A stretch of 64,000 nt of DNA from Escherichia coli (GCF_024502345.1 NZ_JALDNN010000001.1); one strand, 5' to 3'. Shown: positions 25,593 to 29,585, counted from the stretch's first letter. Translations and numbers: made by a program. Notes: a model not told the origin generated them from the letters alone.

Positions 25593-25805
25593 TCAAAGTG
25601 CCACTACATGAACAGCCGCGGGGCCTTTAGGTCCGTTCTCAATACCAAATTCGACTTGCTGATTCTCAGTTAACGTTTTGAAATCGTTGCTCTGAATAGC
25701 TGAGAAATGGACAAACACATCTTTGCTACCATCTTTCGGCGTGATGAAACCAAAACCTTTTTCAGGGTTAAACCATTTCACTAAACCAGTCATTTTGTTA
25801 GACAT
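25593..25805 (-). CDS. cspI: Cold-shock protein (CspA family), prophage copy
   Basis: [38 protein letters not shown]... RNP1/RNP2 motifs; the paralog name is a guess from Qin gene order. Confidence 0.8.
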
Positions 25806-26174
25806 CATTATTACCTTTTGAAGAAGTGAGCCCTTGGGCAGAATGGTCCGAAAAAAAATATCAGAGAGAAAAACCAACAAGGAAATCTCAAGAGGTACAA
25901 ATAATAAAATTATAACAATGACTGCTTCAGATAATTTTGTAACAAACCAGAACACCATTAACGCATGATTAACCAACCATAGCAAGGATTACTTTTGTAA
26001 AGAAAAACACACGAATGAAACAATAGCTTTATTTATTAATAAAACGTGTCATTCTGTCTAATGACCTTTTATCTTACCCTTAAGATTTCAAGGATTTTGA
26101 CTCATGGAAGAGTCCTTTTTATTTAAATTTCACATTCAGCGCTAAAAATAATCCGATTTAATGTTAATCTACAT

Positions 26175-26666
26175 CTAATATGTTTTATCTCTTAAAGATT
26201 CATAAATCCGTTGACAAGTCACTCCTGCGATGTAGCGTTTGTCAGCAATTTCAGCATAAAGCTGAGCTTCTGCTGCAATATCTCCGAGCATGTTGGTGAG
26301 CATTCCTTCGGCGGCTTTGGTTGTTTTGCCTCTGACGGCAGCGGCAAGATTTGCGGTATGCTGCGCTGCGTCAAGGCGTATGGCATATTTTGTTGCTTCG
26401 GCACGCAGCTGGTTAACACTATCAGACAGATCAGCAGCCCTGGCAGAAATTTCAGCGGCTTTCTGTTGTGCATCTTTAACAGCCTCATCACGGGATATAG
26501 TTCGCCCCTGTTCAATTATTCGAGCAGCAAATTGGACATTTACCTCTTGAGATAATTCGGCAGCATCACGCTCCGCCCATTTTTTTTGCCATCCTCTGTC
26601 GCTCCAGACATTACCTACGACAAATCCTACCAACACGAGCAAAATCACCGTGAATATCTGATTCAC
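26175..26666 (-). CDS. Spanin inner-membrane subunit (Rz-like)
   Basis: N-terminal TM helix then coiled-coil-like region; directly downstream of the endolysin. Confidence 0.75.
26219..26470 (-). CDS. Spanin outer-membrane lipoprotein (Rz1-like), embedded in the Rz frame
   Basis: Alternate frame inside Rz with lipobox LTSC and Pro-rich tail. Confidence 0.55.
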
Positions 26667-27196
26667 TGTTCTATCCCCCAGCAGGTTAATGCACTCTCCT
26701 GGTCACGACGAATAACCTGACCGTAACAGTTATTTGATCGAATGCGGCAATCGCGCCCCCTGTCCTTAATCCACCAGCGAATCGCCTCGCAGGCACCTTT
26801 ACGATCACCTGCATTCAGCCGCTTATAAAACGTCGACGGGAAACACTTACCGGGGCCAATGTTATAGGGACAAAATGACGCCATACCCGCTTTCTGTGGT
26901 TCGGTCAATGGCACTTTAATATTGCGCTCCACCCATGCCAGCGCCTTATCCCGTTCAATGGCATTAACCTGATCGCATTTTTCCTTCGTCAGTTTCATGC
27001 CAGGAATAACAGGTTTACCATCCACCATCGTGGCCCCTCGACAGATGGTCCATATGCCGGAACCATCGCGGTATGCCGTAGTGTGGTTACCCTCTTTTTC
27101 ATCCAGAAACTGGTCAAGTATCTCAGGAGCAGATGCGCCTGCTCCAATCAGCGCCAGAACGGCCGCTGACAGGCCGTATTTGATTTTTGCGTTCAT
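26663..27196 (-). CDS. SAR-type endolysin (phage lysozyme, R21-like)
   Basis: 177 aa, N-terminal signal-anchor ([14 protein letters not shown]), [20 protein letters not shown] lysozyme motif. Confidence 0.85.
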
Positions 27197-27301
27197 GGAT
27201 ATTTATCAGGATTTATCGGTTTCTGAACCCTGGATATGTTTATCTGTCCCGGCCTGTTGAATCAGGCGGGGAAAAGGTAAAGACAATCAAGAGGATTATT
27301 T

Positions 27302-27574
27302 ATGGACAATAACACCATTTCTCTACAGGAGTTGCTCGACTGCATTTCAAAGCTTCGGGATGATGTAAATGCCCTCACTGTTGCATTTTCATATTTGGCC
27401 TTATCAATTCCCAGAGAACAAATGCAACCAACACTGGCATCGCTCCTGCTTGAATCACGCAACCCCAAATGGTCCCAGGAACAACAAAATTCTTTCAAGT
27501 GGCTGGCGGCATTACTGGAAGAAAAATATGCTGGTAAAATTACCATTTCGGTGGAGTCTTCAGAGAATCAGTAA
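27302..27574 (+). CDS. Hypothetical 90-aa protein on the strand opposite to the lysis cassette
   Basis: ORF fills the gap between endolysin and ydfR-like gene; hydrophilic, helical-looking; no homolog recalled. Confidence 0.25.
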   Translation: MDNNTISLQELLDCISKLRDDVNALTVAFSYLALSIPREQMQPTLASLLLESRNPKWSQEQQNSFKWLAALLEEKYAGKITISVESSENQ

Positions 27575-27884
27575 TTCTTCCTGGTAGCTTTCCTTTGTAG
27601 GTTATCCACACATTCTGCGCCTCTAAAATTACGGGGCGCTTTTCCGGCGACTGCTCATCCCCTTCACATAACCCGGCTGCAACTTCCAGGAAGACCTGTC
27701 TGATGCTCCTTCTGGCTGCTGCCTCATAAAACTCCAGCGCGGCACCTTCAACACGGTCCAGCGAGATGTCCAGGTCAAAAATTTCACCGTCAAAGCGTTT
27801 TTTGTCCCTTAATGCTACAGTTACCGCAACTTTATTCTCAAAATTGCGGATCCCTTTCACAATCAGTTCATAGTTTTGTGTCAT
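27540..27884 (-). CDS. YdfR-like prophage protein (DUF1327)
   Basis: Sits between holin and endolysin as ydfR does in Qin. Confidence 0.6.
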   Translation of the reverse strand: MTQNYELIVKGIRNFENKVAVTVALRDKKRFDGEIFDLDISLDRVEGAALEFYEAAARRSIRQVFLEVAAGLCEGDEQSPEKRPVILEAQNVWITYKGKLPGRITDSLKTPPKW

Positions 27885-27888
27885 TGAA

Positions 27889-28104
27889 TTACTCTCCCCG
27901 TGCAACCTTACGCTTGTCTTCTTTAATCTTGAAATAAAGGTTTGTCAGGTACGTCAGCAAGCCAAATACCAGACTACCCAGCACACCGATTGCAGCCCAC
28001 TGTGACGGAGTTACTTTATCGAGTAACTGCAATGCCCAGAAACCAGCATTACCAGCCGATGTGCCATAGGCGATACCTGTTGTTAACTTATCCATTGATT
28101 TCAT
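27889..28104 (-). CDS. Holin (phage 21 S / EssQ-like)
   Basis: 71 aa with TM segments WALQLL...[15 protein letters not shown] and a charged C-terminus. Confidence 0.8.
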
Positions 28105-28322
28105 ATCCTCACCCCGATGTACACAGATGGTGCAATATGTTTGAAAAGATCGGAGTCTATGGGGTAGTTTTTATAGCAAACGTTGTTCTCAACGGCGCTA
28201 AAAAACAGACACATTAAAAATGTGGGTAATTATTTTAAAAGAAAATCATATATTAAATAATAATACGAGATATGTTTTCATATTTAGTGTACTGTATACG
28301 GCCATTTATACAGGAAAAGCCT

Positions 28323-28493
28323 ATGTCAGAACGTAAAGACTCAAAATCACGCCGTAATTATCTCGTTAAATGTTCCTGCCCAAACTGCACCCAAGAGTCA
28401 GAACACAGTTTTTCAAGAGTACAAAAAGGTGCCCTTTTGATCTGCCCTCATTGCAACAAAGTATTCCAGACAAATCTTAAAGCTGTAGCTTGA
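28323..28493 (+). CDS. Small zinc-ribbon protein (CxxC...CxxC)
   Basis: MSERKDSKSRRNYLVKCSCPNCTQESEHSFSRVQKGALLICPHCNKVF; AGGAAA RBS. Confidence 0.4.
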   Translation: MSERKDSKSRRNYLVKCSCPNCTQESEHSFSRVQKGALLICPHCNKVFQTNLKAVA

Positions 28494-28552
28494 TTGATTT
28501 TATTCGTAACAAGTATTTTTTATATTTTAATAACATATTTAAAGCAGATAAT

Positions 28553-28577
28553 AAAAAACCCGCCTGAGCGGGTTTAA
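28553..28577. terminator. Hairpin ACCCGC-CTGA-GCGGGT with flanking A/T runs
   Basis: Perfect 6-bp stem with T-run on the minus strand. Confidence 0.5.
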
Positions 28578-28856
28578 TATTGTGGTACTTTTTGTGGGAG
28601 TCATCCACTTACGCACTTTGTTTTGCTATGCCAGCAGTTAGCTTCTGCTGTAAAACTATTCATGCAGCAAACCTGCACTTCACCACAATGGTTAGCATAC
28701 TTTTCCTGATTAAGTTATTGCCAAATATGCTGGCCATTGTTTCATGTATTGGACCTCCTTACTCTTTATTAAAGAGATCCAATATTCACCACTCTGTCTG
28801 TATCTCCACTCAGGCATCAGCCTTCTTCGTTATCGTATACAGACAAACTATGAATT

Positions 28857-29072
28857 TTAATCAGTAATTATGACATTTGCTGCTGCAGGACCTTTAGCAC
28901 CACTCTCTACAGAGAAGGTAACCTTTTGACCTTCAAATAAGATTCGATAATTATCATTCTGAATCGCAGAAAAATGCACAAACACATCTTTACTACCATC
29001 AACAGGAGAAATAAAGCCAAAACCTTTATCAGCGTTAAACCATTTTACTAAACCAGTCATTTTATTTGACAT
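28857..29072 (-). CDS. cspB: Cold-shock protein (CspB-like)
   Basis: [38 protein letters not shown]... Confidence 0.85.
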
Positions 29073-29372
29073 TCTACATTCCTTAACTTGAGCCTTTCGG
29101 CATAAATGGCTTGTATAACAGAAACGACTTCGTACTTAATTGGAGAGACTCAAAGAAGGAATAAGTGAATAACACCTGAAATGAGAACTGCTTTAGTAAA
29201 CTACTTCGTATATCGTCTGTTCTTCAAACCGACGCAATCATTAACGCATAGTTGAACATATGAAGCAATGTTTATTTTAGACATCCAGCCATCTTCAACC
29301 CCATCAAAAAACTATAGCTTTCTTCAGGAACGTGTGTATAGTGCGCCAAGTTATCAGTATTAAGGAATTTTT

Positions 29373-29585
29373 TTGTCCCGTAAAATGACAGGAATTCTCA
29401 AAACCTTTGACGGCAAAAGCGGCAAAGGTCTTATAACCCCATCCGATGGTCGTATCGATGTCCAGCTTCATGTTTCAGCGCTCAATCTCCGCGATGCAGA
29501 AGAAATTACCACCGGATTACGCGTGGAATTTTGCCGGATAAATGGTCTGCGTGGACCATCAGCTGCCAATGTTTACCTTTCATGA
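29373..29585 (+). CDS. cspF: Cold-shock-like protein (CspF/CspH-like)
   Basis: [39 protein letters not shown]... Confidence 0.8.

Follow-up and report, generated by a model that had tools for sequence, protein, structure and literature searches.

A Qin-like late module with cold-shock genes in a decayed lambdoid prophage at the 5′ end of Escherichia coli prfC

The window analysed here is a stretch of 64,000 nucleotides (nt) of Escherichia coli DNA, one strand (GCF_024502345.1, NZ_JALDNN010000001.1). Three csp genes at positions 25593..29585 lie within an island of about 16.8 kb, bounded by attachment (att) sites (18097..34905) and inserted into the 5′ coding end of prfC. Our high-confidence interpretation is that the region is a Qin-type module, carried among the late genes of a defective lambdoid prophage at the prfC 5′ end as 'moron' cargo, and that its cspB and cspI would be cold-inducible. 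The three genes are the following.

25593..25805, minus strand: cspI, with a cold-shock domain (CSD, PF00313) at E = 1.8e-31; 69/70 amino acids (aa) and 204/213 nt shared with K-12 cspI
28857..29072, minus strand: cspB, CSD PF00313 at E = 1.2e-30; 69/71 aa and 212/216 nt shared with K-12 cspB
29373..29585, plus strand: cspF, divergent from cspB, CSD PF00313 at E = 8.4e-21; 69/70 aa shared with K-12 CspF

These open reading frames (ORFs) lie exactly where the original prediction had placed three CspA-family genes. Their products score 74-108 bits against PF00313, all above the gathering cut-off of 27, so they are not a chance pattern; they are 97-99% identical in amino acids to their K-12 orthologues, and the cspF product reaches 158 bits with the NCBIfam CspF model (cut-off 111). 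When the window proteins were aligned with all nine Csp proteins of the annotated K-12 MG1655 record (200 bootstrap replicates), each of the three paired with its K-12 CspI, CspB or CspF counterpart at 100% bootstrap. Judged by sequence, the window genes are the orthologues of cspI, cspB and cspF of the K-12 prophage Qin. A phylogeny against both Qin and Rac copies had been proposed; it holds for Qin and is moot for Rac, since the Rac prophage lacks csp genes (it has just ynaE, a paralogue of ydfK, and ynaM) and therefore offers no copies for comparison. As read from the aligned sequences, the RNP1 (KGFGFI) and RNP2 (VFVHF) motifs are intact in CspI and CspB, and we suggest that cspB and cspI encode canonical oligonucleotide-binding (OB)-fold RNA chaperones. 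In CspF, the motifs are replaced (SGKGLI and VQLHV) and W11 is changed to T, as in K-12 CspF and CspH.

The cargo exceeds the list originally given. The predicted GnsB-like and YdfK-like genes are both present in the island, but both lie outside 25593..29585; ynfT, ynfN, ynfQ, a truncated ynfR, ynfU and ynfS are there as well.

19053..19166, plus strand: ynfT, small protein of 37 aa, 36/37 identical to K-12 YnfT
19235..19468, plus strand: ydfK, annotated as cold shock protein YdfK; 76/77 aa identical to K-12 YdfK and 75/77 to Rac YnaE
24745..24918, minus strand: gnsB, PF08178 at E 2e-33; 53/57 aa identical to K-12 GnsB and 36/57 to GnsA
25091..25321, minus strand: ynfN in a 76-aa form, 48/51 identical to K-12 YnfN over the shared part; phrog_3425
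25353..25391: ynfR, truncated
25394..25582, minus strand: ynfQ, Cys-rich, 62 aa, with an ATT start
28323..28493, plus strand: ynfU, zinc-binding small protein, 55/56 aa identical to K-12 YnfU
29640..29729, plus strand: ynfS, small protein

PHROG families cover all cargo proteins, including phrog_729 ('cold shock protein'); YdfK matches phrog_2718 (E 3e-47), and profile searches found no Pfam or NCBIfam model for it. The gnsB product matches PF08178 over its full length (114.5 bits, model positions 1-54 of 54). Pfam names this family 'GnsA/GnsB toxin of bacterial toxin-antitoxin system' and RefSeq names gnsB 'addiction module toxin', and these names favour a different account, in which a gnsB toxin keeps the module in decaying prophages and the csp genes hitch-hike. 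The retention of gnsB in two independently decayed remnants, Qin and the island, points the same way. However, no YmcE-like antitoxin was found beside gnsB: the gene upstream is ynfN, which is not YmcE-like (17/51 identities with YmcE in a forced global alignment), and no other antitoxin candidate was found. Moreover, gnsB lies several kilobases from the csp genes, with the lysis cassette separating cspB and cspF from it. We therefore regard addiction as very improbable.

The Qin csp, gnsB and ydfK cargo is no new finding: it goes back to the K-12 genome and to late-1990s work on the CspA family, and the Qin csp genes have been counted among horizontally acquired cargo by Ramisetty and Sudhakari (PMC6379469). 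The mirroring of this cargo in the island, which the original prediction had claimed, is borne out by four blocks collinear with K-12 Qin at 92-95% nucleotide identity.

18610-21111: matches Qin ynfT to tfaQ
23558-23960: matches Qin ynfO
24608-27206: matches Qin gnsB to rrrQ
27677-30864: matches Qin ydfR to ydfT

The right half of Qin (dicA/C, dicB/F, relBE, hokD, intQ) has no nucleotide or protein match in the island. Identity to Qin is highest, at 96-99%, in the ynfU-cspB-cspF core; the cspB-cspF intergenic region (29073..29372) agrees with Qin at 298/300 positions, against 88-92% for neighbouring intergenic regions. This near-invariance would reflect either strong constraint on regulatory sequence that the two genes share or a patch of recent exchange. 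The second possibility bears on the origin of the module, because a core so much closer to Qin than its flanks (intergenic 298/300 and cspB 212/216, against 88-92%) suggests patchy exchange, and the prfC prophage might then have obtained its module by recent recombination or gene conversion from a resident Qin at ydfJ. Against this, the whole 7.3-kb segment 23558-30864 is 99.8-99.9% identical in nucleotides to intact prfC prophages, those of E. coli Z1322HEC0001 and O55:H7 CB9615. The module was therefore in the lineage before decay, and we consider a recent origin by gene conversion improbable.

We note one local difference from Qin within this part of the island. Between endolysin and ydfR, 470 bp (27207..27676) stand where Qin has 90 bp; they contain an ORF of 90 aa on the opposite strand (27302..27574, a RefSeq hypothetical) and yield a longer YdfR, 114 aa against 103.

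The site and the integrase set the island apart from Qin, and both can be located precisely.

16572..18158, minus strand: prfC, encoding release factor 3 (RF3), 528 codons, with its 5′ end (18111 to 18158) supplied by the phage
18097..18110: attL core, GGGTGAGAAATAAT, an exact repeat of 34892-34905 that falls in prfC codons 17-21
33438..34661, minus strand: P4-type tyrosine integrase, prfC-specific, assigned from domain architecture and homology to P4 Int
34892..34956, minus strand: attR core (34892-34905) with the original start of prfC that the insertion displaced, which matches K-12 prfC 5′ sequence exactly

Comparison with the empty K-12 site shows that homology stops at 18138 on the left and resumes at 34892 on the right, with 42 bp present on both sides. 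Chromosomal homology is thus interrupted inside prfC, and the functional prfC therefore has a phage-supplied 5′ end; RF3 differs from that of K-12 in residues 2-8 and is one residue shorter. The native prfC promoter and first 21 codons are stranded 16.8 kb away beside the integrase, and this displaced fragment is annotated by RefSeq in relatives as a partial coding sequence (CDS) of 69 nt. An 11-bp repeat, ATTATGTACAA (18175 / 34706), was considered as the att core and rejected; the empty K-12 site puts the crossover inside prfC at GGGTGAGAAATAAT. RF3 expression in such lysogens depends on sequence from the phage end.

The integrase has the domains Arm-DNA-bind_3 (DUF4102, PF13356, E 8e-16), Phage_int_M (PF22022, E 1.4e-7) and Phage_integrase (PF00589, E 3.8e-17), and it aligns with P4 Int over its full length at 25% identity over 400 aa (E 8e-22). 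P4-type integrases typically, though not universally, target the 3′ end of a tRNA gene. The target here is the prfC 5′ coding end and not a tRNA gene, the nearest tRNA genes being 3 kb off. Both the P4-type integrase and the insertion at prfC, a site other than that of Qin, had been proposed from the sequence; architecture and full-length homology support the first, and the 14-bp repeat inside the prfC 5′ coding end, with the displaced fragment beside int, supports the second. The integrase is 99.3% and 97.3% identical to the Int of Stx2c- and Stx1a-converting phages, respectively, and no similarity could be detected between it and the intQ remnant of Qin, the intR of Rac or the integrase of the temperate phage Tritos. 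Yet Tritos and Qin share the late module, which agrees with the modular exchange between prophages that the original prediction had invoked. Such mosaicism is textbook lambdoid biology: to find the late module with another integrase and at another site than in Qin is nothing unusual among lambdoid phages, and public annotation already shows it. The same replacement of the prfC N-terminus was described for an Stx1 phage in prfC by Ogura 2007 (PMC2323221), and Bobay et al. list prfC among the core genes disrupted by phages (PMC3603311).

The csp leaders, on which the proposed cold induction turns, and the late genes and hairpins around them are the following.

24682..24661: terminator-like hairpin downstream of gnsB
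25806..25963, minus strand: long 5′ leader of cspI, from an RF01766 match at 25566..25963 (112.5 bits)
26175..27196, minus strand: spanins rzpQ (26175..26666) and rzoQ (26219..26473) and endolysin rrrQ (26663..27196)
27540..28104, minus strand: ydfR (27540..27884) and holin essQ (27889..28104)
29073..29233, minus strand: 5′ leader of cspB, 161 nt, from an RF01766 match at 28794..29233 (152.8 bits)
29879..29902: GC-rich hairpin between Q and cspF, the cspF-ynfS terminator on the plus strand, with a T-run on the minus strand read from the sequence
30008..30760, minus strand: ydfT/quuQ, late antiterminator Q, Pfam Antiterm at E 1.5e-53

In cspA, the leader serves as an RNA thermosensor: after a temperature downshift, it stabilises the mRNA and makes it accessible to translation. 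The Rfam family for this thermoregulator, RF01766, has a gathering score of 78 and a covariance model that spans the 5′ leader and the CDS. From its matches on cspB and cspI, leaders of ~160 nt are predicted, with starts near 29233 and 25963. We propose that cspB and cspI are self-contained cold-inducible units whose ~160-nt cspA-type leaders would act as thermosensors. On cspF and ydfK, neither RF01766 nor any other Rfam family was found at E <= 0.1. As cspF has no leader and its aromatic RNA-binding residues are replaced, it is probably not a cold-induced RNA chaperone.

The match on cspB includes the 3′ terminator hairpin; that on cspI lacks the terminator part. Because only 10 nt separate cspI from ynfQ, the match on cspI has no terminator and a terminator follows gnsB, we suggest that cspI, ynfQ, ynfR′, ynfN and gnsB are probably one co-transcribed, cold-induced operon. 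YnfR, beside cspI, is strongly cold-induced in K-12 (PMC6001520). The late module has the order Q (ydfT) - [cspF / cspB] - ynfU - holin - ydfR - endolysin - spanins - [cspI - ynfQ - ynfR′ - ynfN - gnsB] - terminase, with ynfT-ydfK at the far end of the island beside pin and tfa. The csp cargo sits between conserved late genes, as morons (autonomous promoter-gene-terminator units) do, and cspB has a 3′ hairpin of its own and gnsB a terminator after it, though no promoter was called at the expected positions; we propose that the cargo genes would be expressed from the repressed prophage to the benefit of the lysogen.

The same arrangement can be read in the interest of the phage. The cargo would then be retained for the phage and not the lysogen, transcribed under Q antitermination, with a Csp chaperone or antiterminator aiding late expression or lytic growth in the cold. 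The genes cspB, cspI, ynfQ, ynfN and gnsB share the orientation of Q and the lysis genes, cspB lying between Q and holin and cspI to gnsB downstream of the spanins; from this co-orientation, Q-antiterminated transcription is expected on the phage account. The Q-holin interval is the slot that holds stx in Shiga toxin (Stx) phages. The module is conserved in viable phages, and the NCBIfam CspE/CspA models call relatives of these proteins transcription antiterminators. Lysis genes, Q and csp genes are also alike in pN/pS, the ratio of non-synonymous to synonymous differences. Against a phage function stand the leaders that cspB and cspI have of their own, the terminator on cspB and the hairpin between Q and cspF, all as expected of autonomous morons in a repressed prophage. 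That hairpin (29879..29902) is probably, we infer, the tR′ of the Q-dependent late promoter on the minus strand. Moreover, cspF is antisense to late transcription. We therefore think a phage-side function unlikely, although it is the first of the main rivals, followed in weight by addiction through gnsB and then by recent gene conversion from Qin.

Several points count against our interpretation of the cargo as cold-induced morons serving the lysogen. Cold induction and benefit to the lysogen are inferred from work on K-12 and would apply here by analogy. To our knowledge, ydfK, ynfN, ynfQ and cspF have no known function even in K-12. The pN/pS values of the window against Qin, 0.03-0.27 for the csp genes, gnsB, ynfN, ynfQ and ydfK (tfa was left out), derive from few substitutions (4-12 per gene). 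Since Q, holin and endolysin give similar values, the comparison indicates constraint in which host-level and phage-level selection are inseparable. Finally, where the cspB and cspI promoters were expected, a consensus scan for sigma-70 sites found none, the scan as a whole returning fewer matches than in shuffled sequence. As no consensus csp promoter was called, the promoter assignment takes the start of the Rfam model as its sole basis; by eye, only a cspA-like TTGCTT-17-GTTAAT is discernible, ahead of the +1 predicted for cspB.

The island is a ~16.8-kb remnant of a prfC-integrating lambdoid prophage with three internal deletions. Its closest relatives are intact prfC prophages such as those of Z1322HEC0001 (~52 kb) and CB9615. 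The Z1322HEC0001 element has the order int-dsr1-yfdSRQP-cI/cro-ymfL-replication-Q-cspF/cspB-lysis-cspI..gnsB-terminase-head-tail-stf-tfa-pin, and the island is 99.5-99.8% identical to it where the two overlap. In the alignment, window 23558-30864 corresponds to positions 25101-17796 of the Z1322HEC0001 locus and 30862-32709 to 12524-10677, which places two of the deletions; the third left an N-terminal fragment of terminase A and the final 166 bp of the tail fibre gene, with nothing of what had lain between them.

22086..22949, minus strand: N-terminal fragment of the terminase large subunit fused to a tail-fibre 3′ remnant
22864..23370, minus strand: terminase small subunit, nohA/Nu1-like, assigned from ORF and position
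30862-30864: deletion junction where 5.3 kb are lost, from the remainder of ymfL through DUF968 (replication, nin region), with Z1322HEC0001 locus 12525-17795 missing
31164..32214: immunity region, with a cro-like helix-turn-helix gene (31164..31424, minus strand) and a cI-like XRE/S24 repressor gene (31522..32214, plus strand)
32650..33255, minus strand: N-terminal fragment of dsr1, NCBIfam Dsr1 model positions 1-189 of 1263, adjoining the integrase
32707-32709: deletion junction where 6.8 kb are lost, most of dsr1 through yfdP, with Z1322HEC0001 locus 3905-10676 missing

At the third deletion, window 22183-22818 matches the CB9615 terminase region (85% of nucleotides) and 22018-22183 the stf 3′ end. 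The ORF at 22086..22949 joins ~255 N-terminal aa of a lambda-A-like terminase to out-of-frame tail-fibre sequence, and its end-points are unlike those of the nohA-stfQ junction of Qin. The Dsr1 stump represents 189 aa of an anti-phage sirtuin; intact relatives have the full 1275-aa gene, and the deletion also took yfdP-yfdS. The head and tail genes are all deleted, and the island cannot form particles. The string left after the 5.3-kb deletion is compact and apparently intact, cI(S24)-cro-ymfL′-Q-late promoter-holin-endolysin-spanins. With an SOS-cleavable cI-like repressor, cro, the ymfL stump and Q contiguous and the lysis genes intact, lysis without particles is possible, and the gene content suggests that the remnant may still give such lysis under repressor control. 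None of the complete E. coli genomes in the collection shares this remnant structure; with a 25-kb query, the highest coverage was 77%.

The left part of the island and the chromosomal flank contain further features.

18378..18626, plus strand: dinI-like gene, phrog_189 DinI at E 4e-31, also DinI-like in the RefSeq annotation of a relative
19848..20438, plus strand: pinQ-type serine invertase gene, 4 nt differences in 591 from K-12 pinQ
20536..21111, minus strand: tail fibre assembly gene (tfa)
21120..22022, minus strand: macro-domain gene, 300 aa, Pfam Macro at E 7e-19; phrog_2613

The macro-domain gene (0.9 kb) stands exactly between the stf 3′ end and tfa and is missing from K-12 Qin and from the Z1322HEC0001 prophage; 126 of the 5426 complete E. 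coli genomes have the gene in this stf-macro-tfa setting. Anti-defence and ADP-ribose processing are possibilities for its role. Inside tfa, there is a full-length Rfam match to IS009 (RF02111; 220.9 bits, 20570..20768, minus strand). In the chromosomal flank, two Rfam naRNA4 matches (RF02564, derived from repetitive extragenic palindromic elements) at 24..102 and 13137..13215 (minus strand) are unrelated to the csp cargo.

The csp cargo, the prfC site and the mosaic interpretation are already known, and RefSeq already names cspI, cspB, cspF, gnsB, ynfN, ynfQ and ydfK in such prophages; its annotation covers the module in over a thousand E. coli genomes and also in isolated phages. The gnsB-to-ydfT module (query: window 24500-31200, 6.7 kb) is present at 80% coverage or more in 1556 of the 5426 genomes; this integrase lies beside yjjG in 698 and the prfC-dinI-ynfT-ydfK junction is found in 140. 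The value of the case beyond correct annotation is small. It shows lambdoid mosaicism in a clean, well-bounded form, one late module occurring with at least three unrelated integrases, and is an example of prophage decay that spared cold-shock morons and a lysis cassette; as such, it could feed a systematic study of prophage cargo that survives domestication.

Among known systems, Qin is like the island in having the ynfT to ydfT genes in the same order and orientation, Csp proteins only one or two residues apart, and a terminase-to-tail-fibre deletion. The end-points of that deletion are different in the two, and the remnants therefore decayed independently. Qin lies at ydfJ and the island at the prfC 5′ end; the island has an intact P4-type integrase, whereas Qin has the unrelated pseudogene intQ; and immunity is of the cI/cro/ymfL type in the island and dicA/dicC in Qin. 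Furthermore, the island has no dicB/dicF, relBE, hokD, rem or ydfU, and it carries the extra macro-domain gene. Since site, integrase, immunity region and right-arm genes are not those of Qin, the island carries a Qin-like module and is not Qin itself. The intact prfC prophages share the int-prfC′-yjjG junction at 99.5%; in contrast to Stx-converting prophages, the island has no stx, and its Q-holin interval holds cspF, ynfS, cspB and ynfU. In a phage collection, six records of five phages (2H10, PhiR63_1, HannyBb, PhiR42_1 and Tritos) cover at least 80% of the module at 93-97% nucleotide identity. These temperate phages have complete genomes of 45-49 kb with Q-cspF/cspB-lysis-cspI-ynfQ-ynfN-gnsB, whereas the island is decayed. 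Tritos, which also has pin and a ydfK homologue and whose Int is unrelated to the island integrase, looks like a live relative of Qin (dicB, DicF, hokD, ydfU). The SXT/R391 integrative and conjugative elements likewise integrate site-specifically into the prfC 5′ end (PMC2786100), but they are conjugative elements of ~100 kb and not lambdoid phages.

The K-12 chromosomal locus cspH-cspG-ymcF-ymcE-gnsA is paralogous to the module, with 72-77% nucleotide identity (K-12 1050500-1053000 against window 24758..29581). The divergent pair cspH|cspG is collinear with cspF|cspB (76.5% over 635 bp), cspG-ymcF matches cspI-ynfQ (74% over 360 bp) and gnsA matches gnsB (72%). The locus differs in having no lysis cassette between its halves and no phage genes around it, and its ymcE is unrelated to ynfN. 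In a sliding comparison, the sequence upstream of cspG is closer to cspB (54-71%) than to cspI (34-53%). The first 50 coding nt of cspG are 96% identical to cspB and 88% to cspI, and the gene is cspB-like for its first ~60 nt; from ~nt 108 through ymcF, identity is 57-78% with the cspI side and 30-56% with cspB. The best match switches inside cspG at ~nt 58-107, consistent with cspB and cspI having recombined in an ancient Qin-type late region, with loss of the lysis cassette between them. Both remnants, Qin and the island, keep the whole cold-shock set without virion genes, the island also being without replication genes. Tentatively, and with the balance somewhat against it, we suggest that Qin-type cold-shock morons may be becoming host genes and that the cspH-cspG-ymcF-ymcE-gnsA locus would be the end state of this path. 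A literature search found no paper deriving the cspG locus from a prophage; the older CspA-family literature lay outside that search and we claim no priority. If the suggestion is correct, E. coli would owe one of its main cold-inducible Csp genes to a prophage.

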